IMG/VR virus record: IMGVR_UViG_3300032093_000003
DNA: 64,000 bases
Source of the DNA: a virus
Taxonomy: Duplodnaviria; Heunggongvirae; Uroviricota; Caudoviricetes
Strand: one strand, 5' to 3'
Each line of letters begins with the position of its first letter. Within the stretch, counting starts at the first letter, position 1. Of the stretch, positions 24,898 to 52,197 are shown one piece after another. A program made the translations under genes and the position numbers. Below the pieces are notes generated by a model. The model searched no databases, was not told the DNA's origin, and saw only the letters and a program-made list of their open reading frames with translations.

Positions 24898-25082
24898 TTT
24901 TTCCGGAAAAATTTCTGTTACGGCATTGTCCCCCCTTTCTAACCCCCCCTAAAAACCCCTATTTAAGGGGGGATACGGGAGGGGGGTGGTATAGGGGGGA
25001 GGGGTATGTAGGGAGATAGGGGGGTCGCCAGAGAAATTTTGAATCGGGACGGGGGTGGTCGGTCTGTATCTTGGATAGGGGG
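24898..25082. other. C-tract then G-tract island at the divergent strand switch
   Basis: Palindrome TTTTTCCGGAAAAA, three C-runs, then at least 10 G-runs of 3-6 nt. Confidence 0.7.
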
Positions 25083-25087
25083 TATAA

Positions 25088-25114
25088 AAAAAAGGTATCG
25101 TTTCCGATACCTTT
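25088..25114 (-). terminator. intrinsic terminator
   Basis: AAAGGTATCG/CGATACCTTT stem with T-tract on the minus strand. Confidence 0.75.
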
Positions 25115-25142
25115 GTGAACTCATTAGAGTCAATTTAAGACC

Positions 25143-25664
25143 TTATCTTTCTACAATGTAGTGAACACCACCCAAAGTAATTTCCTCAATAGAACTCAAC
25201 TTAAATGATTGTACCAACACTCTCCTTTCTTGTGGTTGTCTTGAACTCTCACTCACTTTAACAAGGTAACTTTCAAACAATGTCTTTTCAACTTCGTTAC
25301 CCTCAAAAATGTAACTTACATTCGGTTTGATTTCGTCAAATCTTTCAACTTGTAAGTAGTGGGAATTGTGTTTCTCATTGAACAAAACACACTTTGAAAT
25401 ATGAACACCCACCTTATTTTCCTCACTCACAAAATTACCCTCTCCACCCTCTTTTTTATCATTGGTATTCACTCTCGTTTCGTACTCATTTCCAATAAGG
25501 TAGTTACATTTGTTCACTTTGAACACCTTATCATAATAAGGGTTATTTGTTTTGTTCATACGAACTTTTGTTTTGGAAACGATATTAACAAAGGTTGATT
25601 TATCAACATTCATTAAGATTTCCAATAATTCAGTTTGTCCGATTGTTTTTGTTTCTTTGTTCAT
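25143..25664 (-). CDS. hypothetical protein, paralog of 31677..32204; contains no alanine
   Basis: Shared KTKVRMNK..NPY.DKV and SSRQPQE motifs; ATG at 25664 downstream of the promoter. Confidence 0.75.
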   Translation of the reverse strand: MNKETKTIGQTELLEILMNVDKSTFVNIVSKTKVRMNKTNNPYYDKVFKVNKCNYLIGNEYETRVNTNDKKEGGEGNFVSEENKVGVHISKCVLFNEKHNSHYLQVERFDEIKPNVSYIFEGNEVEKTLFESYLVKVSESSRQPQERRVLVQSFKLSSIEEITLGGVHYIVER

Positions 25665-25687
25665 AGTTTTAATTTTTAATTGTTTCA

Positions 25688-25750
25688 CAAATATACACCC
25701 TCAAAATGTATATTTCCAAATTTTTTTTTCCCTTTAACAAAACTTTAACA
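25688..25750 (-). promoter_or_regulatory. Bacteroidota-type promoter (TTTGG...TATATTTG) with an adjacent TTAACA direct repeat
   Basis: TATATTTG at 25695-25688 and TTTGG at 25720-25716; TTAACA at 25734 and 25745 on +. Confidence 0.75.
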
Positions 25751-25893
25751 TTTCGGGGGTGAAGGTTCGGGGTGACTTTTTTCGTGGCGAGAACCTACAA
25801 AGATACAAAATTATTTGTTAATAAAAAGTTAAAGTTTTCGTTAACAAAATTTTAAGAAAAAAAATTTGGAGGTGAACCCGTGAAGGTTTGGAT

Positions 25894-25976
25894 TTTCTGT
25901 GGCGTGTAGGAAAAAAACCACAAAGGTACGAAATTATTTGTTAATAAAAAGTTAAAGTTATTATGAGCCAGAGAAA
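25894..25976. repeat. spacer element (gap 63), plus an extra left arm at 25779-25788
   Basis: TTTCTGTGGC 25894-25903; GCCAGAGAAA 25967-25976. Confidence 0.7.
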
Positions 25977-26103
25977 AAGTTTTCCGGGTGATCCGGGGTT
26001 TACCCGTAAAATTCTTTAACATAACATTAACATTCGGGTTGATTGTTTTGGGGTGTATAAGGTGTATATTTGTATATCGTTCACAAGTTAAAACTCTACT
26101 ACT

Positions 26104-26478
26104 ATGTTAAAAAGAACTCTCACACTCGGACTTCATCATTGGACTGACAATGACTTAATCCTGAACTTTTATGTTACCAAATTCGGTACTCGGTACATTC
26201 ATTTGAAAACCGAAGAAGAACTCTCCAAATTCATCGGTACAACTCCTTGTTCGTTTACCAAACAACAGATGAACTTCCGTTACCTTATGGGGTGTAAATC
26301 AAATGTCCTGACTGACTACTCCAAACTTCAAAAGTTGGTGTTTGAAATGTTTGATGAAATCTCCTTCTACGAATTTCATCAAATCGTGAAAAAGATAGTT
26401 GGACAAGATGAATACGAAAGAAATAAATTCTTTGTGGAAAATGGATATAACCCTGAACGAATGATAATGATAAGTTAA
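26104..26478 (+). CDS. hypothetical early protein (no alanine)
   Basis: 124 aa; promoter TATATTTG at 26065-26072. Confidence 0.75.
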   Translation: MLKRTLTLGLHHWTDNDLILNFYVTKFGTRYIHLKTEEELSKFIGTTPCSFTKQQMNFRYLMGCKSNVLTDYSKLQKLVFEMFDEISFYEFHQIVKKIVGQDEYERNKFFVENGYNPERMIMIS

Positions 26479-26498
26479 TCGGGTTGGAAACTGAAACG

Positions 26499-26527
26499 AA
26501 ACCTCAACAGAAATGTTGGGGTTTTTT
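26499..26527 (+). terminator. intrinsic terminator, identical to 29975-30003
   Basis: AAACCTCAACAGAAATGTTGGGGTTTTTT. Confidence 0.85.
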
Positions 26528-26571
26528 ATTTCCCACAGAACTCCGTGTTCACCAGATTCGCTGGTGGTAAA

Positions 26572-26689
26572 TTTCTTTGGCTTGTAGAACCAGTTAGAAG
26601 ATGTGGTTGGGGACACCGCATGCGAAAATATTTCTGTGGCGGTTGTCTTACATAATAGGGGTATTACAGGAGGTTACACGCCAAGGAAA
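26572..26689. repeat. spacer element with two left arms (gap 39)
   Basis: TTTCTTTGGC 26572; TTTCTGTGGC 26631; GCCAAGGAAA 26680. Confidence 0.8.
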
Positions 26690-26809
26690 TTCCATAATCC
26701 CGGATCACCTGTCGTGTCATCGTATTACACATTCACAAAACTTTAACAAAATAAATTTGGATATAAGGGTATAAATTGGTTAACTTTGACGAAACAAACT
26801 TTCAAAGTT

Positions 26810-27091
26810 ATGTCTTACACAAAAGAAGAAATCAAAATGAACTTGTCAAGAAACCCTAAATGGATAGAAAGAGCGTTGGTTGTCTTACATAACCTCCAAA
26901 CTACCGAAGAACAAATCACAAACGAAACAATCAAAGAGAATGGGGTTGGTTTTAATTCATCGGATAGTCGGTATCTCTCCTATTGTGCGAAATGGATAAA
27001 GGGTGGTAATCACTTAAACGAGAAACACCTCACTAAATGTGGTCAGAAACTCCCAAAGTATTGGAAACAAATACACTCAATGATTAAGTAA
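26810..27091 (+). CDS. conserved phage hypothetical protein
   Basis: ERALVVL...QTxEEQ...NGVGFN motif; ATG at 26810. Confidence 0.7.
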   Translation: MSYTKEEIKMNLSRNPKWIERALVVLHNLQTTEEQITNETIKENGVGFNSSDSRYLSYCAKWIKGGNHLNEKHLTKCGQKLPKYWKQIHSMIK

Positions 27092-27180
27092 CTTCACACT
27101 CCACTCAAAACATTAAACCTCCGATAGTATCGGGGGTTTTTTGTTAGAACTCCGTGTTCACCAGATTCGCTGGTAGATAT

Positions 27181-27224
27181 TTTTTGTGGCGGATAGGTAC
27201 AGATTAACCTACTCGCCATGGAAA
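27181..27224. repeat. spacer element (gap 24)
   Basis: TTTTTGTGGC / GCCATGGAAA. Confidence 0.8.
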
Positions 27225-27343
27225 ATTATCCTGATCGCAACAGCGGTTCACGGGGAAAATTCGTTAACAACATTTTAACAATAAAAATTTGGAAATATAA
27301 GGTATAATGTCGTATATTTGATAAACAATTAAAAACTACTACA

Positions 27344-27523
27344 ATGGACAAAATCACTCTCACACTCCTTCTCCTTACACTCGGACTAATGGGGTTAACA
27401 ATGTTATTCTCTCACTATATGAGGAATGACAAAATCTCAAACATTTTTCTTCGTGTTTTATTCGGTTTGACAATGATGACATTCACTCTCTTTATGATGG
27501 ACATTTTTCTCTCAAACATTTAA
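27344..27523 (+). CDS. 59-aa membrane protein
   Basis: MDKITLTLLLLTLG...; two hydrophobic segments; directly after a promoter. Confidence 0.6.
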   Translation: MDKITLTLLLLTLGLMGLTMLFSHYMRNDKISNIFLRVLFGLTMMTFTLFMMDIFLSNI

Positions 27524-27535
27524 TAACTACCAACT

Positions 27536-27874
27536 ATGACACACGAACAACTACACAACTTCGTATCGGAAAAAGGTGAAAGGGAATTTAACCCACAAGA
27601 AACCTTACAAGTATTAACCCACAACAGAACAACATATTGGTCTTGGGGTGTATCTAAACTCCTTAATATGTTTAATAAGGGGTTATGTTTGAAAGTATCA
27701 GGACATCACCACAAAGGTTGGGTAATCATCACACTCGGTTTTACAGACACTTACTCGGTGTTTTATGTATCAAACAATGGTAAAGTCAAAGATGAACAAC
27801 ACTTGGTCTATTTTGACGAACTCACCGAAAGGATAGATGATAAAATCGAACGAATACCGATTTACAAACACTAA
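27536..27874 (+). CDS. hypothetical early protein (no alanine)
   Basis: 112-aa ORF followed by a terminator. Confidence 0.75.
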   Translation: MTHEQLHNFVSEKGEREFNPQETLQVLTHNRTTYWSWGVSKLLNMFNKGLCLKVSGHHHKGWVIITLGFTDTYSVFYVSNNGKVKDEQHLVYFDELTERIDDKIERIPIYKH

Positions 27875-27967
27875 TCACGAAATCGTAATACAGAAACCCT
27901 CGACAAAAGTCGGGGGTTTTTTGTTTTTCCACAGAACTCCGTGTTCACCAGATTCGCTGGTGGTGAA

Positions 27968-28019
27968 TTTATGTGGCGGATCGTATTACAGATAAAGGTG
28001 GTATTACACGCCACATAAA
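27968..28019. repeat. spacer element (gap 32), perfectly complementary variant arms
   Basis: TTTATGTGGC / GCCACATAAA; two GTATTAC copies inside. Confidence 0.85.
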
Positions 28020-28058
28020 TTTTTTGGTTCAGATCCAGGTTTCCACCAGTGAAACTCT

Positions 28059-28114
28059 TTAACAATAGATTAACAAAATAAATTTGGAATATAAGGTTTA
28101 ATGATGTATATTTG
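28059..28114 (+). promoter_or_regulatory. type example of the early promoter: TTAACA-N5-TTAACA, TTTG (-33), TATATTTG (-7); about 25-30 such promoters between 26.0 and 50.7 kb
   Basis: TTAACA at 28059 and 28070; TTTG at 28083; TATATTTG at 28107. Confidence 0.85.
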
Positions 28115-28137
28115 TTAAACAATTAAAACATACTACA

Positions 28138-28392
28138 ATGGACAAAAACAAACTAATTAACAGAATTGAAAACATTGGTTTTCTTCTCGGTTGTTTTATC
28201 GGTTTATTAACACTTATGATGTTGGGGGCGGAACCTACTACTTGGGATGAGGATGGGTTGTACGATTATGAACACCTTTGGGATAAAGGAAATTCGGGTT
28301 GGTATGTTATGTGGACTTGGGTTTGGTCAGTTGTTACTTTGATTGGGTTGATAGTGGTTAGGTCATTCATTAAGAAAAGTTTAACAAAATAA
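28138..28392 (+). CDS. small membrane protein
   Basis: Two hydrophobic segments. Confidence 0.7.
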   Translation: MDKNKLINRIENIGFLLGCFIGLLTLMMLGAEPTTWDEDGLYDYEHLWDKGNSGWYVMWTWVWSVVTLIGLIVVRSFIKKSLTK

Positions 28393-28449
28393 ATTTGGTT
28401 TTACTCGGTATAAGTTGTATATTTGTATAAACAATTAAAAACAAAAATT

Positions 28450-28644
28450 ATGAAAAAGTTTTTCAGTTCTATTCTCGGTTTTCACTTGACAATTATGGTT
28501 GGGTTGGTTGTTATGTTTTACTTCAACAACTTGGAAGATAACTACCTAACAATCATTAACAACATTTTCTTGGTTATGATGTCTTTATCCGTTGTGTTAT
28601 CGGTGGTCTTATGTTACTTTGACAAACGAATTTCTAAAAGATAG
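28450..28644 (+). CDS. small membrane protein
   Basis: ATG at 28450 after its own promoter. Confidence 0.65.
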   Translation: MKKFFSSILGFHLTIMVGLVVMFYFNNLEDNYLTIINNIFLVMMSLSVVLSVVLCYFDKRISKR

Positions 28645-28746
28645 TTGTAGTTTTAATTGTGAACGAAACCACTCCGAAAGGGGTGGTTTTTTTATTTGTG
28701 GTATTACACAAAACTTGAATCGCGGTTCGAGCTGGGATTACACCTT

Positions 28747-28790
28747 TTTCTGTGGCGATCCGTATTACAGAAACCCACTCGCCATAAAAA
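28747..28790. repeat. spacer element (gap 24)
   Basis: TTTCTGTGGC / GCCATAAAAA. Confidence 0.8.
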
Positions 28791-28898
28791 AAGTTTACCA
28801 GGACGACAGGTATGAATATGGTTTTGAAAAATAAATTTGGAATCAAAAAATATAAGTTGTATATTTGTGTATTATCTAACAAATTAAATTTATATCAA

Positions 28899-29240
28899 AT
28901 GAAAGAACAAAATGAATGTAATGGAAAAATGTTTCCGAAAGGTTTTTGGTCAAAGAATGGTAAGCCCACACAAAACGCCTTAATGATGTATTTTGTGTAT
29001 TTGACACATTTACCTGAAAGTTGGAAAAAGAAAGTAGTACACAAACCCTCACTCGAAAAAACACGACAATACTTTGATGTTGATTATGGTATTGAATGTA
29101 TGTTAACTTGGGGGATACAATTTGGTTGTAAAAATTCTAAAACGTCAGATGAAAGACACCACGCAATGTCTTTGGCTTATCACGACGCTTTGGGTATGAT
29201 TGGTCAAGGTTACCGATACACCGAATTGAAAATTAAGTAG
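28899..29240 (+). CDS. hypothetical early protein
   Basis: ATG at 28899 after a promoter; terminator follows. Confidence 0.7.
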   Translation: MKEQNECNGKMFPKGFWSKNGKPTQNALMMYFVYLTHLPESWKKKVVHKPSLEKTRQYFDVDYGIECMLTWGIQFGCKNSKTSDERHHAMSLAYHDALGMIGQGYRYTELKIK

Positions 29241-29340
29241 TGTTTGGTTTTAATTGTGAACGAAAAGTCCTCAACGAAAGTTGGGGATTTTTTTTGTCAA
29301 GTCACAGACCTCCGTGTTCACCAGATTCGCTGGTGGACAT

Positions 29341-29384
29341 TTTTTGTGGCTGATCCTATTAGAGAAACCGACAAGCCATAGAAA
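29341..29384. repeat. spacer element (gap 24)
   Basis: TTTTTGTGGC / GCCATAGAAA. Confidence 0.8.
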
Positions 29385-29493
29385 TTTCAGGATGGAAGGT
29401 GATCCGAATTCACCTTCACAAAATTTTAACAAAAAAAATTTGGAATAAGTATGTATATGTTGTATATTTGTATAAATAATTAAAAAAAACATT

Positions 29494-29631
29494 ATGAAAA
29501 AGATTTATTCAGTTATCGTAGTTATCGTTCTTGTATCATTAACAATGTCCTCTTGTAAAACAAGTGGGTATGGTTGTAAGGGGAAAGAAAGTTGGGGTGG
29601 ATTGATGAAAAGAATTAACAAACCTTATTAG
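29494..29631 (+). CDS. 45-aa lipoprotein
   Basis: MKKIYSVIVVIVLVSLTMSSC lipobox; own promoter and terminator. Confidence 0.65.
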   Translation: MKKIYSVIVVIVLVSLTMSSCKTSGYGCKGKESWGGLMKRINKPY

Positions 29632-29747
29632 TAGTATGGTTGGTTTTAACCCGATGTTTTTACATCGGGTTTTTTATTTTTTTTAACATTTTAGATTTGA
29701 AATATAATATTTATTGTTGTATATTTGTTTAACTAAACCCACTCACT

Positions 29748-29951
29748 ATGAATTTACAATTAAGAACTGAACTAATCGGAAAAAGAATTATGATGATTTT
29801 TATGGATGACCCTCAACCTATTGAACCAAACACAATGGGTACAATTATCGGAGTTGATGGGTTAAATCAATATCAAGTCAAATGGGATAACGGAAGAAGT
29901 TTATCGGTTATACCCGAAGAAGACCAATTCGTCATTATTGACACAGAGTAG
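29748..29951 (+). CDS. small SH3-like (DUF4314-like) protein
   Basis: GTIIGVDG...VKWDNGRSLSVIPEED. Confidence 0.65.
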   Translation: MNLQLRTELIGKRIMMIFMDDPQPIEPNTMGTIIGVDGLNQYQVKWDNGRSLSVIPEEDQFVIIDTE

Positions 29952-30048
29952 TCCGTTCGTTCCCTCATAAAGACAAACCTCAACAGAAATGTTGGGGTTT
30001 TTTGTTTCTCCACAGAACTCCGTGTTCACCATGCTCCCGGTATGTCAT

Positions 30049-30092
30049 TTTCTGTGGCTGATCGTATTACAGGAAGTTAGACGCCAAAGAAA
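30049..30092. repeat. spacer element (gap 24)
   Basis: TTTCTGTGGC / GCCAAAGAAA. Confidence 0.8.
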
Positions 30093-30485
30093 TTTCCAAC
30101 GACCCGGATCAGGAAATCGCCTGTCGGTTATCTTCACAAAGTTTTAACAAAATAAATTTGGAATATAAAGTATAATGATGTATATTTGTTAAACAATTAA
30201 AAACTACTACAATGAAACAAGACAATTCTGACCAATGGATTCAAGGATTAACATTAATAATCTGTTTTATTACACTTGTTATTGTAATCTCCTTAAAGTA
30301 TTATCTAACGGGTGAAATCTAAAATAAATTTGGAATATAATAAATAATACCTTATATTTGTGTTATGAAACAGAAATACGAAAATAGATTTTACAAAATT
30401 TTACTTTTATTTTGGATGATGGTATTCACCTTTGTTTACTTTCAAATAAAATATCAATTAGTTTTCCATTTCTAAAAAACGAAAT

Positions 30486-30638
30486 ATGAAAAATAATTAT
30501 TTAAGTACAATTAAAAGAAAGGAACAAGTACAACAAGGAATGTACGATGGTCGTTTCCGTAGTCGTGTGGTGGTAGATAAGAAGAAGAAAGAAAGTAAAA
30601 ACAAATGTCGTGTTAAACTTAAAATCAATTATGTATGA
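30486..30638 (+). CDS. 50-aa basic protein
   Basis: QGMYDGRFRSRVVVDKKKKE; ATGA overlap with the next ORF. Confidence 0.6.
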   Translation: MKNNYLSTIKRKEQVQQGMYDGRFRSRVVVDKKKKESKNKCRVKLKINYV

Positions 30639-30844
30639 TACTTGAATTACATTCAGTCGGAAGTGTTATTGACACAGAAACACTATTCACATATCCAATG
30701 TTACTAAATGGTGGATATGATAAAAATCAAAATGTCCATATTGACGATGTTGATATAGAGTGGTTTCATAGTTTGTCTGATGAAGATTTTGGAACAATAA
30801 ATGAGTTAATCAATCAAAGAAACATTAAATCGGAAATAGTATGA
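30635..30844 (+). CDS. hypothetical acidic protein
   Basis: 69-aa ORF. Confidence 0.65.
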   Translation: MILELHSVGSVIDTETLFTYPMLLNGGYDKNQNVHIDDVDIEWFHSLSDEDFGTINELINQRNIKSEIV

Positions 30845-31067
30845 ACAGAGATAGACTAAATAAAATTGAAGAAATTGGTTTTCGTATTACAATGATATTG
30901 GTGTTTAGTGTTTTCACTATTTGGTTGATTGGAACGATTGTCAAGTTAATAATGATATTGTCGTCATAGTTTAGGTTTGGTTTTAATTGTGAAGAAATCC
31001 CTCAACGAAAGTTGGGGGATTTTCTTTTGGAGGAACTTGAGTCGTGGTTCACCGTGTCTTCAGGGAT

Positions 31068-31113
31068 TTTTTGTGGCTGATCGTATTCAGGTCAACCTCA
31101 CAAGCCACGGAAA
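31068..31113. repeat. spacer element (gap 26)
   Basis: TTTTTGTGGC / GCCACGGAAA. Confidence 0.8.
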
Positions 31114-31238
31114 TTTGGTAATCCGAATCACCTGTTTTCCTTCAGGAAATCCTTTCACAAATTTTTAACAAATTATTTTTGGAATAAAAATTTATATGGT
31201 GTATATTTGTTATATCATTAACAATTAAAACAAACATT

Positions 31239-31406
31239 ATGAAAAAGTTACTTGGTCTTATCGTTATCGTGGTTTTATTTTCTTCTTGTAGTCATTATGT
31301 AAACGGAGGTGGTGGAGGTTGTGGGGTATGGTATCCTCGTAAATTTGAAAAAACAAAGGTGTTCCCTACTCGAAATCATCCAATGTATCGACACTTCGGA
31401 GGATAG
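31239..31406 (+). CDS. 55-aa lipoprotein, paralog of 32766..32960
   Basis: MKKLLGLIVIVVLFSSC lipobox; GCGVWYPRKFE. Confidence 0.7.
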   Translation: MKKLLGLIVIVVLFSSCSHYVNGGGGGCGVWYPRKFEKTKVFPTRNHPMYRHFGG

Positions 31407-31504
31407 TGTTCTAAATAAACCTATCAATAAAAATCCCTGACAATAGTCGGGGATTTTTTTTTCAAACACAAGAAGATGTGATCCGGATCAGCTCGACCGT
31501 GGAT

Positions 31505-31540
31505 TTTCTCTGGCTCAGGTCAACCTACAAGCCAAAGAAA
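31505..31540. repeat. spacer element (gap 16)
   Basis: TTTCTCTGGC / GCCAAAGAAA. Confidence 0.8.
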
Positions 31541-31676
31541 ATTAATAATCCAGATCCCGTCCCTGAAATTTTAACAAAACTTTAACACAAAATCCTTTAA
31601 CAACATTTTAACAATAAAAATTTGGAAATAGGTAGTAATAAGTTGTATATTTGTATAAACAATTAAAACAAATTTT

Positions 31677-32204
31677 ATGAAACAGAAACAAAGAGTATTT
31701 GTAACAGAAAGAGAGTTGTTAATTATCTTAATGAGTATTGACAAACCTACATTCACTCACATTGTATCTAAAACCAAAGTGAGAATGAATAAAGGTGGTA
31801 ATCCGTATTTTGATAAAGTTACCAAACACTCAAAAGGTAACTACTTCATCGGTGGTAGTTATGAGGATATGGTAAACACTCGTTGTGTGAAAGAGGGTAT
31901 TGAACCTAATTTTGAAAGTCAAGAATGTTCAGTCGGAGAACATATTACCAAGTGTGTTCAGTATAATGAGAACTTACAGAGGTACTATCTTCAATACTTC
32001 ATCTTCCCTACAAGTAACATCAAGAGTGAATTTACCTATGAGGGAGATAGTATTGAGAGAGAGTTGTTCCGTAGTTATGAGGTAAAGAGGTCGGAGAGTT
32101 CAAGACAACCACAAGAGAACAAACACAAACCACAATCGTTTATGGTATCTTCCATTGAGGAAATGACACTAAACGGAACGGAATATGTGGTGGTAGGTAG
32201 ATAA
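31677..32204 (+). CDS. hypothetical protein, paralog of 25143..25664; no alanine
   Basis: Shared motifs; four TTAACA boxes upstream (31571, 31582, 31597, 31608). Confidence 0.8.
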   Translation: MKQKQRVFVTERELLIILMSIDKPTFTHIVSKTKVRMNKGGNPYFDKVTKHSKGNYFIGGSYEDMVNTRCVKEGIEPNFESQECSVGEHITKCVQYNENLQRYYLQYFIFPTSNIKSEFTYEGDSIERELFRSYEVKRSESSRQPQENKHKPQSFMVSSIEEMTLNGTEYVVVGR

Positions 32205-44426: not shown

Positions 44427-44482
44427 CATAAATTATTTGGAGGTATAATGTTTTAAGTTGTATATTTGTAAAAATTAAAATT

Positions 44483-44879: not shown

Positions 44880-46471
44880 ATGAAATCACAACAAGTTTTT
44901 ATTGTAATGTACAATGACCGATATGGTAACGGAGACCAGAAGAAAATAGAGGTGGTATTAAAAGATGAAAAAGATTTTAAGAAGTGGTTGAAGAACCATA
45001 ACTACGATAGGGATGCAGAACCCGAAACAAAAGAAGAATTTGATTTAATTCCAGTTAACCTTTTAACTTTTGATTAACGATTATTATATTATCTTTACAA
45101 ATAAAAAAAATTGTATGACAACACAACAATTCAACGAGAAGTACAAAGATTACTTGGAGGAAGGACACTATGGTTTAGCCATAGGTGCTGGAGAATTTGT
45201 AGAATGGTTAGATAAAAAGTTTGAGGACTTTGTTAAGAAACCCGGTTTTAGATTTACACAGATTAAAGCGAAATTCGGTTATGGTAGATTTTACGCCGAA
45301 GGTTTAACAAGTGATGAAGTTCGTGAAGTGGAACAGAGAATTACAGATTTACATTCAGGTACAAAATTAGAATTTTAATTATGGCAAGAGTATCAAAATT
45401 AGCACAAAGACAAACCTATTCAAACGGACATCAAATTTGTGTTGGATTGACTGGTGATATTGGTTATATATCTATTGAAGATAATAACCTTTATCCCGAA
45501 GGTGATAGTCGAGCAGATAGAAGGGATATGAATTTTAATAGGATAATGGTTCCCGTTATGACAAGGGAAGACCTTAAAGATTTACAGACCGCTATTGGTG
45601 AAGTATTAAAAAACTCAAAATAATGTCATACACAATAGATAAAATAATTCCAGTCAAATACGAATGGGATGATAAATGGACGGTAACCGCAGATCTTCGT
45701 GGACTTGAAACCTTTGAGAACTGCGAAAGTAATTATGATGTGGTTGAAAGATTAAAAGATAATAATGTCCTTTCAAGTAAAACTAGTGAGGATAGTGAAT
45801 ATTGTCAATTCTTTGCATATTTCAGTACAAAGAAAGCGGCAGAGAACTTTATCAAAAGATTAGGAACTTATATTGAAAAAAGAAAAAAATTAATATCATC
45901 TTTGTAATATGGAAATTTTAACATTTAGAGAATGGAGTGAGAACTTTGTAAAAGTTATCTTTGATTTAGAGGGTGGAGTAGAAATCAAATCATTTAACAA
46001 AACAATTCTTAAAGTAAAAACCCCAAAGATTGTTAATGGTTTGTTAGAAGAACAAAGTAAAATGTTGTTGAAACATTACACCGATAACTTTGATAAAATA
46101 CAAAGTCAGTATCAAGAATTATTAAACGAAGTTATATGACCGCACACCACATAGCAAAAGTTGTTCAAAGTCAATTCGATAAAGTAGATTTCGACGCCAT
46201 CATTGATAAGTGGAAACACATTAAAAGAGAGGATTGTGGTAGAGTATCAGATGAATGGGTTAATACAAGGATTGATGATAAACAATACTATAAGTGGATG
46301 AGGGCGTGTTCCTTATTAGAGGAACATATTAAAAGGAACTTTGAAACCTTTGAAGAAACTGAATTGGTTTATACTTGGGCGAAAGACCTTTGTATTCAAA
46401 AGAACAATGAATTAAATAGGTGGCGTCAGTTTGGTGCGTATCAAACATTTTCTCAATTTAGAAAGAGATAA
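44880..46471 (+). other. run of small hypothetical CDS (44880..45077, 45115..45378, 45381..45623, 45623..45907, 45909..46139, 46136..46471)
   Basis: Abutting ORFs on + ending at a terminator near 46500-46525. Confidence 0.65.
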
Positions 46472-46566
46472 TATGAGAAACCTAATCTGTACCTTTTTAA
46501 CCCCGACATAATGTTGGGGTTTTTTGTTGCTTGAACTTTGCTGGTCCTGTGCGCAACAGGTGAGAT

Positions 46567-46601
46567 ATTCTGTGGCAGACTAAACACACTCGCCACAGAA
46601 A
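46567..46601. repeat. spacer element (gap 15)
   Basis: ATTCTGTGGC / GCCACAGAAA. Confidence 0.85.
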
Positions 46602-46745
46602 TTTCAGATGACCGGGGTCAGGACAGTTTCAGGGTAAAACTATTTATATCTGTTAAGAAAATTTTAACAAAATAAATTTGGAAATACAAAGAAATAAGTT
46701 GTATATTTGTAATGTCATTTAATTATTAACTCAAAACTTTTTCAA

Positions 46746-47015
46746 ATGAAAAGTAAAGTAAAAAAACAAAAACACACCCTACTCAAAGGAGAGGGAGCAA
46801 ACCAACACACTCTTTACGGAGAGTTTAAGATTGATGAAGAAAAGTCCTTTGCAACATTGGAAGTAACAAAGGATAGTGTATTAAAACACGAACAACCTGA
46901 CGGAAGTTTCTCAAACGAACATCAAGCCTTAAAGATTGACAAAGGTAATTGGGTTATGGGAAAACAAGTTGAGTACAATCCGTTTTCTCGTTCAGTAAGT
47001 CAAGTTTGGGACTAA
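46746..47015 (+). CDS. conserved small protein, first gene of a 4-gene operon
   Basis: GEGANQH, LKHE...EH and QVEYNPF motifs. Confidence 0.7.
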   Translation: MKSKVKKQKHTLLKGEGANQHTLYGEFKIDEEKSFATLEVTKDSVLKHEQPDGSFSNEHQALKIDKGNWVMGKQVEYNPFSRSVSQVWD

Positions 47016-47041
47016 TTTATTCACACACTAAATCAACTCAA

Positions 47042-47446
47042 ATGGCAAATCCGTTAATTCATTCTAAATCCAGTGTTAAACGCTGGGGTGGAAAGGTAGA
47101 AGATTATTTACCTATTCACGAACTTATTGATAGTCCAAAAATGACTATGAATAATAATAGTGCGAGGTTACTTACTCACAATACCTGGTTCGCATACCAC
47201 ATTGTTCCGAAAATCTTTGGTTACAACATTGTTAATTCTGACGGAAAGTCCGTTGATGTTGTAGATATTGCGATGTTACATATTGCAGAAGATTTCCGAA
47301 TGAAGTTTGTACCGACACCACAGGACTATCTTAAACATTTAGAAGTCCAACCCTGGATGAATAATGGAGTTAAGCCCGTTGATAATCCCGAAGCGTACGA
47401 AATTGTTAAAAACTTAAATCAAAAATTACACGATTATGCAAACTAA
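47042..47446 (+). CDS. DUF6915-like protein
   Basis: MANPLIHSKSSVKRWGG..EDYLPIH and HIAEDF motifs. Confidence 0.65.
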   Translation: MANPLIHSKSSVKRWGGKVEDYLPIHELIDSPKMTMNNNSARLLTHNTWFAYHIVPKIFGYNIVNSDGKSVDVVDIAMLHIAEDFRMKFVPTPQDYLKHLEVQPWMNNGVKPVDNPEAYEIVKNLNQKLHDYAN

Positions 47447-48116
47447 TGAAGCAGTAAAACTCTGGAAGGAGTTAGGTATTACACACGCAAATATGGAGTT
47501 CAGTTGTGGTGGAGATAGTATGAATGACTACCACTTTACTTTCTACAAGAAAAACGATAGTAAGAAAAAGAATGTCCCCGAAGAAATTGAGGTTAATAGT
47601 CCCGAATTGGAAAGTTACTTTGACAAAGAAGTGTTTGATGAAGTTGAGTTTTATGTAAACTCTGACGGACACTACATTGGGGAGCACGGAAATGTTTATA
47701 TTGAATTAGATGATAGTGATGAAGATGAAGAAGAACATACTTTCATTTATTCAAAAAGTGCCAAAAGTGAGTGGTCGGAGAGAATTGAAGAAACAATGGA
47801 AATCAAATTATCAAAGAAGATGTCTAAATTTGTTTCGGAGTATGTTAGTAACATTAACGGAGAAGAAGGGAATTGTACTATCAATTTCAAAAAAGATTTC
47901 ATAATGTCTGACGAACAAGAAAAGTTGGTGGGAGAATTGGAAGAAATTGTATTACAAGAAACCGCAGACTTTGAGCCTTCCTATGATGAAGGGGAGAAAG
48001 AAGATTACTATACTTTCACAACAAATGACGGAGATGATAGAGAAGAATTAACTATCAAAGATGATAAGTTGTTGGTATCTGTTGGAACTTCGTTTATCAT
48101 TTACAAAGAAGATTAA
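47436..48116 (+). CDS. DUF6878-like acidic protein
   Basis: GITHANMEFSCGGDS motif. Confidence 0.55.
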   Translation: MQTNEAVKLWKELGITHANMEFSCGGDSMNDYHFTFYKKNDSKKKNVPEEIEVNSPELESYFDKEVFDEVEFYVNSDGHYIGEHGNVYIELDDSDEDEEEHTFIYSKSAKSEWSERIEETMEIKLSKKMSKFVSEYVSNINGEEGNCTINFKKDFIMSDEQEKLVGELEEIVLQETADFEPSYDEGEKEDYYTFTTNDGDDREELTIKDDKLLVSVGTSFIIYKED

Positions 48117-48144
48117 ATTATTAACAAATTAAATTAAATCAGTT

Positions 48145-48816
48145 ATGCAAATCGTTATCAATAATTTACAATTTCCGTATGACATTGGTTGTCGTATTTT
48201 GAAAGTGAAACACAAAGATTGTCCTTTCAGTCAGTTGGAAGATATTTGGGAAGATATTACCCCGATTACTTTCAAAGAGATAGCCCAATTAGAGAACTTG
48301 GAACAACGCCGTGTGGCTATGTTGAACTATGGGTTAGATAGATTGGTCAAAGAGATTAAACCCGAATTGATTGATAAGAAAACATTGAAGAAAACAACAA
48401 CTTGGGTTAGTCAAGACGGACAACTTGTTACCAAAAAATTCAATGACACTTATGAACTTTACAAAGTTAATGGGGAAGTTTTCGGTAAGGCTCGTAATTC
48501 TTGGTCAAAACCTGATGATTGTTACTATGTAAAGTGTAAGGACACAAGTACCGACAGAGAGTATTTCATTTGGGTTGATATGAAAAGTGTGGCAAACACA
48601 AATGGTCAGGGTTGGAATTGGGATATTAAAAAGGTCAATGCAATTCAGGCAATTGCTTGGACTATTCAAACGGACATTCCCGAAGGTTGTATTGAGAAGA
48701 TTGTAAGACAGGGAGATTGTGTGTTGATTAAACCGATAGGGAAGAAAGTAAAGTCGGAAAGTACAAGACACTTAACGGAAAGTGAGTACAAAAATCTGTT
48801 GGTCGCTGAGAGTTAG
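48145..48816 (+). CDS. DUF6745-like protein
   Basis: ENLEQRRVAM, VKCKDTSTDREY and AIAWT motifs. Confidence 0.55.
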   Translation: MQIVINNLQFPYDIGCRILKVKHKDCPFSQLEDIWEDITPITFKEIAQLENLEQRRVAMLNYGLDRLVKEIKPELIDKKTLKKTTTWVSQDGQLVTKKFNDTYELYKVNGEVFGKARNSWSKPDDCYYVKCKDTSTDREYFIWVDMKSVANTNGQGWNWDIKKVNAIQAIAWTIQTDIPEGCIEKIVRQGDCVLIKPIGKKVKSESTRHLTESEYKNLLVAES

Positions 48817-48905
48817 TAGTTTTTGACAAATGAAAGGGGGTACAATTAGTACCCCTTTTTTTATGCACTTTTTGTGCACTCGATCTGCATATTAACAGGT
48901 GAGAT

Positions 48906-48940
48906 TTTCTGTGGCGGATCAACTATACTCGCCACAGAAA
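48906..48940. repeat. spacer element (gap 15), 13-bp perfect inverted repeat
   Basis: ATTTTCTGTGGCG / CGCCACAGAAAAT. Confidence 0.9.
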
Positions 48941-49050
48941 ATTCTTGGTTCAGATCCTGAAATTTTTAGATATAATATCTTAACTAAACTTTAACGAAAA
49001 TAAATTTGGAATCAAAATATATAAGTTGTATATTTGTAAAAATTAAAATT

Positions 49051-49815
49051 ATGATTTACACAACTAAAGCTCAAGCAAAAAAATTAACGGGTATCGGTTA
49101 CCTGGGGTCGGTTAACTTAACTACCAAACATCAGAAGGCGTACAAGTACAATGAACTTACTTATAGTTTATACCTCGCACCCGCAAAGTCAAGTGGTTAT
49201 GAGGTTTGTCCTATGAGAAGTGAAGAATGTACATTGCTATGTTTGAACGAATCGGGAATGAATAAAATGACACAGAAGGTAAAGGGTGATGTTATTAATG
49301 AATCTAGAATTAAAAAAACGAAATTATTCTTTGAACACAGGGAATTTTTTGTTAATTGGATGATAGATGAAATATACACCGCAAAGAAAAAGGCAGATAA
49401 ACTCGGTCACAAGTTCAGTGTTCGTTTAAACAATACATCAGATATAACCCCCGAAAGTTTTTATGTGACATATAAAGGAGAAGTGAGAAATGTATTACAG
49501 ATTTTCCCCGATGTTAAATTTTACGATTACACGAAAGTTCCGAAACGAATTGAATTGTTAAAGAAGTACAATAACTACGATTTAACATTTTCATTTAGTG
49601 GATATAACTTTCCCGATTGTATTAGTATGTTGAATAATGATGTTAGAGTGGCGGTCGTATTTAGAAAAGAATTACCCGAAACTTTCTGGGGTCGTAAAGT
49701 TATTGACGGGGATGAATACGATATGAGATACTACGATGAAAAAAATGTTATTGTAGGTTTGAAATATAAAAGTGTTAGAAACAAGTTAAAGGATGATTAC
49801 AAGTTCGTTGTTTAG
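49051..49815 (+). CDS. Gp88-like protein (Cys-cluster, radical-SAM-like)
   Basis: VCP...CTLLCLNESG, RLNNTSD, FYDYTK and DGDEYDMR motifs. Confidence 0.75.
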   Translation: MIYTTKAQAKKLTGIGYLGSVNLTTKHQKAYKYNELTYSLYLAPAKSSGYEVCPMRSEECTLLCLNESGMNKMTQKVKGDVINESRIKKTKLFFEHREFFVNWMIDEIYTAKKKADKLGHKFSVRLNNTSDITPESFYVTYKGEVRNVLQIFPDVKFYDYTKVPKRIELLKKYNNYDLTFSFSGYNFPDCISMLNNDVRVAVVFRKELPETFWGRKVIDGDEYDMRYYDEKNVIVGLKYKSVRNKLKDDYKFVV

Positions 49816-49906
49816 TAGTTTTTGTTTTGATAGAGAACCCACCAGTAAAATGGTGGGTTTTTTATTGCTGTTACCAGAGCAGATCGCAGCGCAAAGCACA
49901 GTGGAA

Positions 49907-50049
49907 TTTCTGTGGCAGAATAGTTTTATTGATTATCAATGAGTTATGAAAATAGCAAAAGTTGCAAAAGTTGCAGCAACACCAGAGCAAGTTGCCAGAT
50001 TCAGAGCTATGGATTTTCTGTGGCAGACATTTGTATTACGCCACAGAAT
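49907..50049. repeat. spacer element with two left arms (gap 15)
   Basis: TTTCTGTGGC at 49907 and 50015; GCCACAGAAT at 50040. Confidence 0.85.
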
Positions 50050-50182
50050 ATTTTTACCGTGCCGGGCTGGGGTCGTGATCAAAAATATTTTTGCAAAATT
50101 TTAACAAAATATATTTGGATTATAACTTTATCCGTTGTATATTTGTGATGTCATTAATTATTAAACTCTAAATTTTATTAAC

Positions 50183-50638
50183 ATGGGAACTAGATCTCTC
50201 ACAACATTCATTGAAAGATGGAACGATGAAAAGACAGGTAAAAAGAAACAAGTTAAGATTGTAACAATGTATCGTCAAATGGACGGTTACCCCGAAGGAC
50301 ACGGACTTGACCTCGCAGATTTTTTGGCTGGTGGTACTGTTGTTAATGGTTTGCCGATAGGTGTAATTACAGGTGAAGACAAGACACTTTACTTTAATGG
50401 AATGGGTTGTTTGTCCGCACAGGTAATCGGACATTTCAAAACCAATTCTGGAGGAATTTATTTACACAGGGGAGGAATTACCAACTGTTGGGAACAGTAT
50501 CGATATGAGGTTATTGTAGATGAAGACAACCCGAAAGAAATCTTACTCCGTTGTTATGATGTGTATGACCGTAAATGGATATTCGAGGGAAACCCTAAAG
50601 ATTTTGTTAAAAAATACAAAGAAAAAGAAAAAGTATAA
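50183..50638 (+). CDS. conserved phage hypothetical protein
   Basis: MGTRS...YRQMDGYPEGHG motif. Confidence 0.75.
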   Translation: MGTRSLTTFIERWNDEKTGKKKQVKIVTMYRQMDGYPEGHGLDLADFLAGGTVVNGLPIGVITGEDKTLYFNGMGCLSAQVIGHFKTNSGGIYLHRGGITNCWEQYRYEVIVDEDNPKEILLRCYDVYDRKWIFEGNPKDFVKKYKEKEKV

Positions 50639-50711
50639 AAAATATTTTTGTATTATAATTTAAAACTCCGTATATTTGTATCACATTATCTAACAATTTA
50701 AATTTTATTTT

Positions 50712-51254
50712 ATGGGATTAGACCAGTATCTCTCCAAGAAAACTTATGTTAAAAATTGGAGCTTCCACACTAAGGAACAAAAACACACTGTCACCGTTAA
50801 GAAGGGTGGTAAGAAAAGAACCGACATTAACCCTGAAAAAATCTCCTACATTGTTGAGGAAGTAATGTATTGGAGAAAAGCAAATCAAATTCATAATTGG
50901 TTTGTACAGAATGTTCAGGATGGTGAAGATAATTGTCGGGAACATTATGTGGAGAAAGAAAAACTGAAAGAACTTGTTGACACCTGTAAGAAAGTTCGTG
51001 ACAGTTTATTGAAGTCCGAAATCAAATTGGTTCAAGCTGAGGTTGGTTGGGCTAATGGTGAGAAGATGTATGACAATATCGAAGTTTACACCGACACGGA
51101 AGTCGCGGAGGAATTGTTACCACCGAGTCCAGGTTTCTTCTTTGGTTCATATGAGTTCGATAAATGGTATCTTCAGGATATTGAAAATACTATTAACGCG
51201 ATCGAACCACTATTAGACAGTGACGGTGAATTTTATTACGACTCGTCTTGGTAA
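50712..51254 (+). CDS. conserved phage hypothetical protein
   Basis: MGLDQYL, YWRKANQIHNWF and GFFFGS motifs. Confidence 0.75.
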   Translation: MGLDQYLSKKTYVKNWSFHTKEQKHTVTVKKGGKKRTDINPEKISYIVEEVMYWRKANQIHNWFVQNVQDGEDNCREHYVEKEKLKELVDTCKKVRDSLLKSEIKLVQAEVGWANGEKMYDNIEVYTDTEVAEELLPPSPGFFFGSYEFDKWYLQDIENTINAIEPLLDSDGEFYYDSSW

Positions 51255-51328
51255 AAAAATATTGGGGATATTGTTTGGTAAAACGATATCCCCTTTATAT
51301 CTTTGTATCACATTTTAAAATAAATCTT

Positions 51329-52197
51329 ATGACAAAAGAATTGTTACAAACTTGGACAACCAAAGCGAAAGAAGTATTAGAGGGACGAACTATTATATCA
51401 GTCCGTTATCTTAATGATAAAGAAATGGAAATGATGGGTTGGTATAAACGACCTGTCGTGTTCTTCCTCGACAACGGAACATCCTGTATTCTCTCTATGG
51501 ACGACGAGGGTAATGATGGTGGTGTTTTATTCTATGGTAAAGATGGTGTATTACCTACACTTTAAAATAAATCTATATGAGAAGTTTTTTAGAATTAAAA
51601 ACAGCAATAACAAACGGTGTTCCATTAGTATGGAATGACCCTGACCCAATCAAAGGTACTGATTATACAATCACATACATTGAACCACTAGATGAAATTG
51701 ATGATGATGAAGACCCAATGGGTTATCCAATTCTAATTCAATATGGGGGTTCAGAAGCTCAGGTTTATTTACATGAAATCATTTTAAAATAAATCTATAT
51801 GAAAAAACGAATTAAAGTTAGGTTCAATCTCGGTAGAGGTAAGAACTATCTAAAATGGAAAATCGAATATCCATCAGGTGAGGTAGAGTATCATTATCCT
51901 ATCAATGTACAACTCGTAATGAAGAACTGTCAGCTTAAGAACAACAGGAATGCCGCTGAGAAGATTTATAAAAATCAATCACACAAAGTCGTTTGTGCTT
52001 GGGTACTCTGTGAGGATATCGATGTGAAGTTCGATAAATTTAAGGCGTATGACACGATGGATCTGGATCGATTAACATACAATCCAAGAAGATTACCATA
52101 TTGGGTGAAAGATGATGGTTATCTAATGTGTATGGATGGAGTAACAGTAAATGAAATTGGAACAGTGGATTATAAATTATTCATAACTAAAAATTAA
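51329..52197 (+). other. three small hypothetical CDS (51329..51565, 51577..51792, 51799..52197)
   Basis: Abutting ORFs with a repeated AAATAAATCT(A)TATG start context. Confidence 0.65.

Follow-up and report, generated by a model that had tools for sequence, protein, structure and literature searches.

Expression cassettes in the predicted early region of a T4-like jumbo phage are depleted of GpC and short palindromes

Results

Organization of the early region

The window analysed here, a stretch of 64,000 nucleotides, comes from the 287-kb genome of a T4-like jumbo phage of Bacteroidota. We divided the early region into 23 transcription units (TUs), which have Bacteroidota-type host promoters, and 21 spacers, most of them 136-159 bp (~150 bp) long. 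Each TU begins with a host-type promoter (TTTG, 19-20 nt, TAnnTTTG) and extends through a 5’ leader and at least one gene to an intrinsic terminator whose stem is made without GpC, and the spacers lie between these units. The early promoters, roughly 35, are all co-directional and point away from a conserved boundary element; 34 of the genome’s 49 plus-strand hits to the host-type promoter fall within the early region. The early status of the cassettes is predicted from these promoters, and the window probably carries the early region of the phage, read by the RNA polymerase of a Bacteroidota host. Proteins encoded in the early block include DUF932 and SprT-like proteins and a winged-helix protein that might bind spacer or promoter boxes.

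Array, genes and flanking features:
26047..49866, plus strand: early array of 23 TUs (from promoters, terminators and segmentation)
26047..38478, plus strand: core zone of near-total GpC exclusion, first 17 TUs (GpC 21/234 expected, O/E 0.09)
20194..21194: longest GpC-free run of the genome, 1001 bp, in minus-strand genes left of the array
25029-25786: GpC-free interval, containing the next gene
25143..25688, minus strand: divergent gene, 181 aa, no Ala, no GpC
30121..31075: GpC-free interval, 955 bp
31533..32288: GpC-free interval, 756 bp
32335..33265: GpC-free interval, 931 bp
43869..44426, plus strand: PhoB/OmpR-type winged-helix protein, no receiver domain
50114..52059, plus strand: last cassettes, where palindrome exclusion fades; GATC exclusion ends at 52060
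53325..54242, plus strand: DNMT3-like C5 cytosine methyltransferase, 305 aa (Pfam PF00145, E 1e-32)
54294..55929, plus strand: GATC-rich stretch (17 sites counted) with DUF4241 and bPH_2 genes

Spacers, all plus strand:
26532..26755: double length (from segmentation)
27146..27287: with inverted repeat TTTCTGTGGC..GCCACAGAAA and GATC
27929..28082: spacer
28698..28835: spacer
29296..29438: spacer
30008..30156: spacer
31029..31177: spacer
31463..31620: with GATCCGGATC
32253..32409: spacer
33234..33385: with GATCCGGATC
34154..34289: spacer
35009..35248: double length, with an extra terminator-like hairpin
36684..36827: with GCGC-rich upstream module (TGCGCAACAG type)
37522..37668: with GATCCGGATC
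38479..38627: with GCGC-rich module
39935..40093: with GCGC-rich module
41275..41412: with GCGC-rich module
43884..43970: short, left repeat arm only
46529..46676: spacer
48863..49004: spacer
49867..50113: double length, GpC-rich

The spacers share conserved modules, namely a 13-bp inverted repeat based on TGGC..GCCA, a GCGC-containing box, and GATC at two to three kept positions per spacer with variable flanks. Together they hold 38 GATC, 11 CCGG, 11 AGCT and 8 GCGC sites, the last out of 21 GCGC in the whole genome, and the composite palindrome GATCCGGATC occurs in them three times.

GpC is lost from the cassettes, and alanine with it

The TUs contain 138 GpC dinucleotides where 508 are expected (O/E 0.27), and the spacers 120 where 130 are expected after correction for local composition (O/E 0.92). 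The first-pass annotation had described the spacers as concentrating both GpC and GATC; GpC is merely not depleted there, while the GATC enrichment survives the same correction (38 vs 11.8 expected, 3.2x, Poisson p 1e-9, the spacer copies being related to each other). CCGG is enriched 2.1x. In the core zone TUs, between 26 and 38.5 kb, AGCT, TGCA, CATG, GGCC and GCGC are all absent, and 11 of the 21 residual GpCs lie within GCG. Genome-wide, GpC O/E is 0.56 and alanine 3.3%, the cassettes forming the extreme end of a gradient. The shift occurs within a few bases at the cassette ends, and early genes show a 3-5 times stronger GpC depletion at synonymous positions than other genes.

The four GpC-free intervals reported earlier are exact, with flanking GpCs at 25027/25787, 30119/31076, 31531/32289 and 32333/33266. 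Between 18 and 22 GpCs are expected in each, and the probability of finding none is about 1e-8 to 1e-10 per interval at an O/E of 1, or 4e-6 to 5e-5 at the genome O/E of 0.56. The range given for such runs, 25029-52000, was too narrow, since the longest run of the genome sits outside it.

Loss of GpC removes the GCN alanine codons, the NGC codons and the G|C codon junctions, and so leads to alanine-free proteins. Early coding sequences have 19 alanines in 2298 codons (0.8%) vs 76 expected, and five proteins of at least 100 aa have none. All seven proteins previously named as alanine-free are so (joint probability 2e-12 at 3.3% Ala), and the remaining alanine codons are indeed mostly GCG (11 of 19 in early genes vs 17% elsewhere, Fisher p 7e-5). 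On the coding strand, reverse-complement trinucleotides are equally depleted (O/E for GCA/TGC 0.04/0.05, GCT/AGC 0.10/0.13, GCC/GGC 0.24/0.19, GCG/CGC 0.35/0.35), which indicates a process acting on double-stranded DNA.

The exclusion extends to most short palindromes

The depletion proved broader than first reported, reaching beyond GpC and GATC to almost all palindromes of 4, 5 or 6 bp that contain G/C. GATC itself occurs in the TUs 4 times vs 58 expected; genic GATC between 25.1 and 52.0 kb is found at exactly the six positions listed before, and the end of its exclusion, placed near 52 kb, computes to 52060. The TUs are also purged of ACGT, CATG, TCGA, CTAG, CCGG, GANTC, GAATTC and others, and the ten 4-bp palindromes with G/C add up to 50 occurrences where 442 are expected. 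Palindromes make up six of the seven most depleted tetramers without GpC (relative to dinucleotide expectation, ACGT 0.05, GATC 0.08, CATG 0.10, TCGA 0.17, CTAG 0.19 and CCGG 0.21). The 5-bp palindromes ACNGT, GANTC, CTNAG and GGNCC stand at 0.08-0.16, and hexamers of the form S-WWWW-S, such as GAATTC, at 9/46.9 in the TUs vs 563/613 in the remaining genome. CpG, AATT and TTAA are normal in the TUs.

Neither GC content nor codon bias accounts for this. Against shuffles of synonymous codons or of codon order the depletion stays highly significant, with z scores of -6 to -10 (GpC -10.5, GATC -6.3, ACGT -8.4), and AATT, TTAA and CGCG are unchanged. The non-coding parts of the TUs (promoters, leaders and terminators; 3.6 kb) are no less depleted than the coding parts, with GpC at 4/52, palindromes at 3/55 and CpG at 49/52. 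This strong layer occupies only about 9% of the genome, as a distinct site-poor zone with a sharp left edge near 24-25 kb that fades at 48-52 kb and is broken up every 0.3-2.5 kb by a spacer that carries sites. Across the whole genome, AGCT (152/800) and GCGC (21/154) are avoided, and GATC in the remaining genome is at expectation (800/800).

Sister phages and phage methyltransferases

The cassette layout and the GpC depletion are common to sister phages, in which gene order differs; the alanine-free state is kept in sister orthologues at 27-66% identity, and the spacer repeat arms co-vary. One sister has no GATC in 73 kb (0/215 expected) and another no CATG in 83 kb (0/245 expected), and such complete purging of single tetramers indicates that avoiding sites is how this phage family survives. 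The breadth of the purge is lineage-specific, since sister G002 keeps ACGT and TCGA in its early genes.

The phage encodes three methyltransferases, of the Dam-family, C5 and N6/N4 types. The nearest solved structures to the C5 enzyme are the DNMT3A/3B catalytic domains (E 4e-19). Its gene is not site-poor, having 6 GATC inside, and the stretch after it is GATC-rich as noted earlier (at least 15 sites had been given).

Discussion

Selection against restriction sites, as the first reading of this sequence proposed, is supported by the palindromic nature of the depleted tetramers, the purge of 5- and 6-bp palindromes and the single tetramers purged in sisters. We think it probable that selection acting on double-stranded DNA has cleared the expression cassettes of short restriction-modification words. 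The protected unit would be the self-contained cassette rather than the region as a whole, cleared of nearly all G/C-containing 4-, 5- and 6-bp palindromes and, in the first 12 kb, of nearly every GpC too; the ~150-bp spacers would be exempt, their inverted repeat, GATC positions and GCGC box needing words that are purged elsewhere. The benefit may be that the first genes remain transcribable until counter-defences act, candidates for which are early proteins, the three methyltransferases, and repair or ligation. It would hold whichever part of a permuted genome enters first, and even with nicks or cuts elsewhere. The context-independent loss of GpC could reflect the same pressure on the core dinucleotide of sites that the family avoids (AGCT, GCGC). 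Avoidance of sites in a sub-genomic early region has published precedent (PMC12455610), as has avoidance mainly of orthodox Type II palindromes (PMC6286503).

Several points count against this explanation. A genome cut anywhere should be lost, so avoidance limited to cassettes needs an extra assumption, perhaps that ligation or recombination rescues the genome, that cutting races with early counter-defence, or that co-infecting kin benefit. The normal GATC count in the remaining genome indicates that no GATC-cutting enzyme is a present threat to the genome as a whole, yet the TUs avoid GATC. Loss of non-palindromic GpC is not needed for ordinary Type II avoidance, CpG is treated differently, and the spacers hold GCGC and AGCT, words purged genome-wide.

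The first-pass annotation took this to be the first-exposed part of the genome. On this reading DNA would enter left to right, starting at a fixed genome end located close to the C/G-tract island (~24.9-25.1 kb), perhaps pulled in by host RNA polymerase as in T7 or in a two-step transfer as in T5, and the array segment alone would lie exposed until anti-restriction functions had been made. The one-way early promoters and the zone’s sharp left and fading right edges suit this, but the capsid and the terminase, of the T4 gp17 type, are T4-type. T4-type packaging is headful and gives permuted genomes, as PMC12455610 also notes. The contig moreover extends across both flanks and lacks end repeats, and the spacers have kept their sites, although a cut at any of these would be as fatal as one in a gene. 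The terminase type and the unpurged spacers make the proposal doubtful; it is unproven, and we rate it unlikely. T5, T7 and Murciavirus provide precedent for it, but early-region avoidance would not apply to headful or permuted phages (PMC12455610).

Selection on transcripts or transcription, by a host or phage RNase (for instance a GCU cleaver resembling MqsR) or by a phage shut-off factor that separates GpC-poor phage templates from host DNA with normal GpC, would fit the match between avoided and transcribed territory, the untranscribed being exempt, and the GpC-free terminator stems; GpC is normal in sampled Bacteroidota DNA and could mark non-self. The avoided words, however, are overwhelmingly palindromes, as is characteristic of dimeric DNA enzymes, and on the coding strand a trinucleotide and its reverse complement are depleted to the same degree. 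We know of no RNase with such a pattern of palindromes, and regard this account as very unlikely.

It is hardly any more credible that the spacers are regulatory and that their signals, GC-containing motifs and sites for the phage’s own methyltransferases (GATC for the Dam-family enzyme, perhaps CCGG for the C5 enzyme), are avoided in cassettes so that the action of binding proteins or methyl marks is restricted to sites upstream of promoters, for example to distinguish parental DNA, which is methylated, from newly made copies, in the manner of the GATC cluster that precedes phage Mu mom. Consistent with this are the kept GATC positions, the repeated GATCCGGATC, the co-varying repeat arms, the methyltransferases themselves, and the fact that spacer-enriched GATC and CCGG belong to the small set of palindromes that the genome as a whole does not avoid. 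It leaves the purge of CATG, ACGT, TCGA, CTAG and GAATTC unexplained, as the spacers do not use these words, and sisters G001, G004 and G005 have the same spacers without any GATC.

Mutational decay, in which a GpC-specific C5 methyltransferase (phage DNMT3-like or host) or a GC-context deaminase turns GC into GT or AC, with weakly constrained early genes at equilibrium and spacers persisting like CpG islands, is the least credible of these. A small DNMT3-like enzyme does lie at the zone’s edge, GpC is scarce throughout the genome and the family, and AC (1.31) and GT (1.14) are somewhat over-represented in early TUs. However, the partners of GC in orthologue alignments are GA 28, GT 26, AC 24, TC 17, GG 17 and CC 10, giving a transition share of 0.41 that is not above that of other dinucleotides (0.41-0.57), and GG and CC are up as much as GT and AC. 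This lack of transition bias argues against the deaminase or methylation bias that had been offered as an alternative. Nor would it account for the GpC-free palindromes purged from the same TUs, the stronger synonymous depletion in early genes or the switch at cassette ends. The C5 methyltransferase was not found in sister fragments that show this depletion, G002 included, where the syntenic position is covered. We find no support for host mimicry, as GpC O/E is 0.8-1.3 in sampled Bacteroidota loci.

We know of no description of a compositional purge in promoter-early/stem-loop (PeSL) cassettes. Like the cassettes studied here, the PeSLs of T4-like hyperplastic regions flank small novel ORFs with terminator and early-promoter units (PMC2839356, PMC4122927), but here a conserved ~150-bp spacer with an inverted repeat stands between terminator and promoter. 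The pattern looks like known restriction-site avoidance at an unusual extreme, confined to single expression units. As in T5 (first-step-transfer DNA), T7 and Murciavirus, whose first-injected regions are site-free (PMC12455610), sites are tolerated in the genome bulk and excluded from an early region with variable, probably anti-defence, genes; those phages have fixed ends, staged injection and a whole segment free of sites for one or few specificities, whereas this one is T4-type, purges nearly all short palindromes and a dinucleotide, and has site-bearing spacers. Orthodox Type II-like palindromes are under-represented as in virulent phages with genome-wide avoidance (PMC6286503), but a second, far stronger layer here reaches amino-acid composition. 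Leading regions of conjugative plasmids are likewise early-expressed and rich in small accessory or anti-defence-type genes (PMC11541004, PMC13478746), but across 1751 plasmids they were not consistently depleted in 4-8-bp palindromes (PMC13478746), whereas depletion here is about 8-fold. In vertebrate CpG depletion (PMC4804638), a self-complementary dinucleotide is also lost in bulk and kept in short promoter-proximal islands; with no transition signature, co-depleted unrelated palindromes and boundaries that follow cassettes, the present case looks similar but apparently works differently.

The early array and its transcription units

The window spans bases 115,786-179,785 of a 286,785-bp IMG/VR virus record without end repeats. 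The major capsid protein of the record is T4-type (Pfam Gp23, E 1e-64), and the only solved relatives of its large terminase are the gp17 proteins of T4 and RB49. The housekeeping promoter consensus of Bacteroidota has TTTG at -33 and TAnnTTTG at -7 (PMC6847099). About 35 matches to it lie at 26.0-51.3 kb, every one on the plus strand, and 34 of the 49 plus-strand matches of the genome fall in the early array, with about 7 per strand expected by chance. Using promoters and intrinsic terminators, and with ORFs as the only gene calls, we segmented 26,047-50,113 into 23 transcription units (TUs, or cassettes: host-type promoter, gene or genes, terminator; 20.7 kb) and 21 spacers, 17 of which are 136-159 bp long. 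Because the promoters are host-type, we infer that the 23 TUs hold early genes. As in the promoter-early/stem-loop cassettes of T4-like phages, a composite of terminator and early promoter is repeated between small variable ORFs, and the virion and packaging genes (gp23, gp17) are T4-like.

Proteins encoded in the early block include DUF932, SprT-like, DUF6915 and GP88 members. Most early proteins fell into no family, no known anti-restriction protein was recognised among them, and PHROGs and Pfam gave no function for those that lack alanine. Nucleotide searches of the public phage collection returned no match, Rfam returned no known RNA family at 24-58 kb, and no bacterial relative was found for a galactofuranose-operon protein considered as a clue to the host.

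Words excluded from transcription units

The first-pass annotation had described cassette genes at 25,029-52,000 as excluding GpC and GATC, and its readings by eye proved accurate. The four intervals said to lack GpC (25029-25786, 30121-31075, 31533-32288 and 32335-33265) are exact, with 18-22 GpC expected in each, and none of the seven proteins named as alanine-free (genes at 25143, 26104, 27536, 29748, 30635, 31677 and 33447) contains alanine. The residual alanine codons of early genes are mostly GCG (11 of 19), as had been seen; elsewhere GCG makes up 17% of alanine codons. The six genic GATC positions (38388, 42226, 42913, 45692, 50193 and 51200) are likewise exact, 17 GATC lie at 54.3-55.9 kb, and GATC exclusion ends at 52,060. 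The longest GpC-free run of the genome, at 20,192-21,195, is slightly outside the range first described. Genome-wide, 259 ORFs reach 100 aa, and nine of them are alanine-free; five of these lie at 25-39 kb of the window and the other four at window coordinates -52947, -18091, -13716 and 72099.

Recognition-type words, GpC and GATC included, are under-represented beyond composition, and amino-acid content and codon use do not account for their depletion. In synonymous-codon or codon-order shuffles of early genes, GpC was observed 129 times where the null gave 210-217 (z about -10.5), GATC 4 against 32-44, ACGT 2 against 43-46, TCGA 6 against 47-48 and CATG 6 against 36-42; the counts of AATT, TTAA and CGCG agree with the null. 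GpC is also low across the genome, with an observed/expected ratio (O/E) of 0.56 and alanine at 3.3% of residues, so the cassettes are the extreme of a genome-wide trend.

The exclusion in TUs is much broader than GpC and GATC. Among GpC-free tetramers, the most depleted relative to dinucleotide expectation are ACGT (0.05), GATC (0.08) and CATG (0.10), followed by TCGA (0.17), CTAG (0.19) and CCGG (0.21), and palindromes make up six of the top seven. In TUs at 26-38.5 kb there is no copy of AGCT, TGCA, CATG, GGCC or GCGC, where about 28 copies each of AGCT, TGCA and CATG would be expected. Hexamer palindromes with A/T cores (GAATTC, CATATG, CTTAAG and others) number 9 in TUs against 46.9 expected, and 563 against 613 in the rest of the genome, while the interrupted palindromes ACNGT, GANTC, CTNAG and GGNCC stand at 0.08-0.16 in TUs and 0.66-0.85 elsewhere. 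GpC is lost in all contexts, whereas CpG is lost only in palindromic ones.

In the non-coding parts of TUs (3.6 kb of promoters, leaders, intercistronic DNA and terminators) the exclusion is no weaker than in genes, with 4 GpC against 52 expected and 3 copies of ten palindromes against 55, at 49 CpG against 52; the G/C-rich terminator stems consist of CpG and of runs of C or G, and contain no GpC. What is subject to exclusion is thus the cassette from promoter to terminator, and its boundary with the spacer is sharp. The depletion is limited to the early-expressed block, and sites are kept in the rest of the genome. Near-total loss of GpC extends from about 24 to 38.5 kb (O/E 0.09, and 0.43 beyond), and loss of palindromes has a separate limit at about 48-50 kb. 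Outside the early array, GpC-free palindromes are sparsest (O/E 0.28-0.39) in six minus-strand genes at 404-5913, which are rich in Gly, Ser, Thr and Asn and have 8.7% alanine and a GpC O/E of about 1.

Spacers between transcription units

Parts of the aligned spacers, from the most upstream
Part 1: variable module
Part 2: 13-bp inverted repeat, AAATTTCTGTGGC...GCCACAGAAATTT
Part 3: GATC adjoining the left repeat arm in most copies
Part 4: oriented motif GTATTACA
Part 5: variable stretch (about 35 nt), in most cases with a second GATC
Part 6: TTAACA-N5-TTAAC box immediately upstream of -33

The early block is not site-free once its intergenic DNA is included, since the spacers retain 38 GATC, 11 CCGG, 11 AGCT and 8 GCGC. 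The first-pass annotation had both excluded words concentrated in spacers. This stands for GATC (11.8 expected) and fails for GpC (120 against 130 after correction for local composition), all such counts coming from related, and so not independent, spacer copies. Spacer GpCs lie mostly in the TGGC/GCCA arms and in the TGCGCAACAG-type box found in the spacers at 36-50 kb, and therefore 8 of the genome's 21 GCGC copies fall in 3.3 kb of spacer. CTAG, GGCC, GTAC and ACGT are scarce in spacers as well, and the spacers are not a general palindrome sink. We also considered whether they mirror the word usage of the resident genome, an idea that agrees with GATC and is contradicted by AGCT and GCGC.

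The octamer GTATTACA has 24 plus-strand copies in the genome, 23 of them at 26661-49492, and three on the minus strand. It often stands 6-9 nt past the TGGC of the spacer repeat, a placement shared with sister phages. A composite 10-bp palindrome, GATCCGGATC, is present in three spacers (31480, 33255 and 37613). When IMG/VR was scanned for exact matches to the inverted-repeat pattern, 32 unrelated contigs matched, each with a single copy; this is about the number expected by chance, and for that reason these contigs served solely as a composition control.

Sister phages

The DUF932 early protein recurs at 61-72% identity in seven IMG/VR loci, all with the same layout of co-directional host-type promoters, terminators and inverted-repeat spacers. 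The repeat arms co-vary, being CTGTGGC/GCCACAG in this phage and GTTTGGC/GCCAAAC in the sisters, and the loop is about 3-30 nt long. Of each sister genome 5-27% is represented, as fragments, and in all three large fragments GpC O/E is about 0.5, with a minimum of 0.2-0.3 around cassette arrays.

One sister phage (G001, loci L048-L051) has no GATC in 72,946 bp, spacers included, where about 215 are expected, and another (G002, loci L052-L056) has no CATG in 83,362 bp, where about 245 are expected. The present phage avoids AGCT (152 against 800 expected) and GCGC (21 against 154) genome-wide. Evidently the phage family survives by purging restriction sites, different ones in each lineage. The breadth of the palindrome purge is itself lineage-specific, because early genes of G002 retain ACGT and TCGA; the same retention speaks against a shared pool of nomadic cassettes carrying the union of the family's avoidances. 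The alanine-free state of immediate-early proteins is kept in orthologues at 27-66% identity (for example those of the genes at 27536, 29748, 31677, 33447 and 38660), which implies long-standing, sustained pressure on these genes.

Orthologous early cassettes are ordered differently in this phage (26-50 kb) and in another sister, G005 (locus L041), where the orthologues of 46136 and 38660 precede those of 33447 and 36026. This difference in order is consistent with shuffling at the repeated spacer/promoter units.

Methyltransferases

The phage encodes three methyltransferases, all orphan.

Methyltransferases of the phage
Genome 230735-231466 (L062:1399-2241), minus strand: Dam-family adenine methyltransferase, far from the window
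Genome 207282-207725 (L065): N6/N4 methyltransferase, far from the window
Window 53,325-54,242: DNMT3-like C5 methyltransferase

The DNMT3-like enzyme was not found in the sister fragments that have the same depletion. Three palindromes, GATC, CCGG and GTAC, escape avoidance and occur at expectation across the genome; one idea is that they are self-methylated, and the GATC and CCGG of the spacers would then be putative methyl marks.

Probable selection on cassettes and its alternatives

Trinucleotides containing GC and their own reverse complements are equally depleted on the coding strand, and the avoided words are palindromic, which points to a process that reads double-stranded DNA. This process is probably selection against restriction-type words, acting cassette by cassette in the early expression units. 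Phages are well documented to avoid restriction sites, chiefly Type II palindromes (PMC6286503), and in T5, T7 and Murciavirus this avoidance is concentrated on early-injected regions (PMC12455610). Compared with those phages, the present case is unusual in its breadth, which takes in nearly all short palindromes and one dinucleotide, down to amino-acid composition; in its grain, with single cassettes affected and spacers exempt; and in its setting, a T4-type phage. Members of the T4-type packaging family have permuted genomes. For permuted-genome phages no early-region effect is expected (PMC12455610). Although sites persist elsewhere in the genome, intact cassettes may matter through a race between cleavage and early counter-defence; alternatively, ligation or recombination may rescue cohesive breaks, or co-infecting kin may benefit from the intact cassettes.

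It is possible, if rather doubtful, that the early programme as a whole tolerates fragmentation, with restriction-proof gene modules and with cleavable or methylatable sites relegated to spacers or purposely kept. Host enzymes would then cut the incoming genome between modules and early proteins would still be produced; these would restore the genome, through ligation, recombination or methylation, or would disarm the cell for co-infecting kin. Cuts would also free whole cassettes with homologous ends, which would lead to cassette shuffling among phages, and the GpC purge, indifferent to context, would be a general erasure of most GC-rich site cores in modules serving many hosts. That entry order explains the purge, the block being first-entering DNA as the first-pass annotation proposed, we consider unlikely: the terminase (gp17) and gp23 are T4-type, uncleaned spacers lie within the block and the record has no end repeats.

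Decay by a GpC-directed deaminase or by methylation, which had also been raised, would turn GpC into GT and AC. We aligned orthologues of this phage and its sisters by codon (39 pairs, diverged and partly non-independent) and saw no excess of transitions. The dinucleotides facing GC were GA 28, GT 26, AC 24, TC 17, GG 17 and CC 10, transitions made up 0.41 of single-step differences (0.41-0.57 for other dinucleotides). In dinucleotide composition, GG and CC are over-represented as much as GT and AC. GpC at codon positions 2-3 and 3-1 stands at 0.11 and 0.06 in early genes and at 0.25 and 0.36 elsewhere; early genes are 3-5 times more strongly depleted at synonymous positions, so a uniform mutational pressure does not fit.

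Mimicry of a host signature is not supported by the GpC O/E of Bacteroidota, 0.80-1.30 at 35 rpoB loci and 0.86-1.34 at 41 16S-anchored loci, a sample taken at the level of the host phylum; the 32 unrelated viral contigs have normal composition, with GpC O/E of 0.7-1.5. Codon adaptation or protein-level avoidance of alanine was rejected as the cause, since the depletion of GCN codons (0.24) is matched or exceeded at codon junctions (0.06), in NGC codons (0.11) and in the non-coding parts of TUs (0.08).

Studies usually score restriction-site avoidance by genome or by first-injected segment. In this phage the target of selection seems to be the individual expression cassette, and the selection is strong enough to strip out a dinucleotide and so to deprive several proteins of an amino acid, a state preserved across diverged sister phages. 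If this is true, early genes of headful-packaging phages can face separate anti-restriction selection, avoidance surveys should distinguish transcription units, and immediate-early genes of uncultured phages could be located from the word usage of their cassettes. The conserved inverted repeat of the spacers, their GATC positions and the GCGC and AGCT that they retain raise the question of methylation-linked or protein-bound regulatory DNA in Bacteroidota phages.

The upstream boundary of the early array

An island at 24898-25082, with several C-runs followed by about ten G-runs, marks the exact switch from minus-strand genes to the plus-strand early array. It is kept at the same boundary in a sister phage (L044, about 1170-1400) and may serve as an origin, as a packaging signal or as a boundary element. 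At 25740-25960, in the divergent promoter region, a unit of about 125 bp stands twice in tandem. Both copies carry the same A/T-rich tail, and each contains one half-site of the spacer repeat (TTTCGTGGCG and TTTCTGTGGCG).
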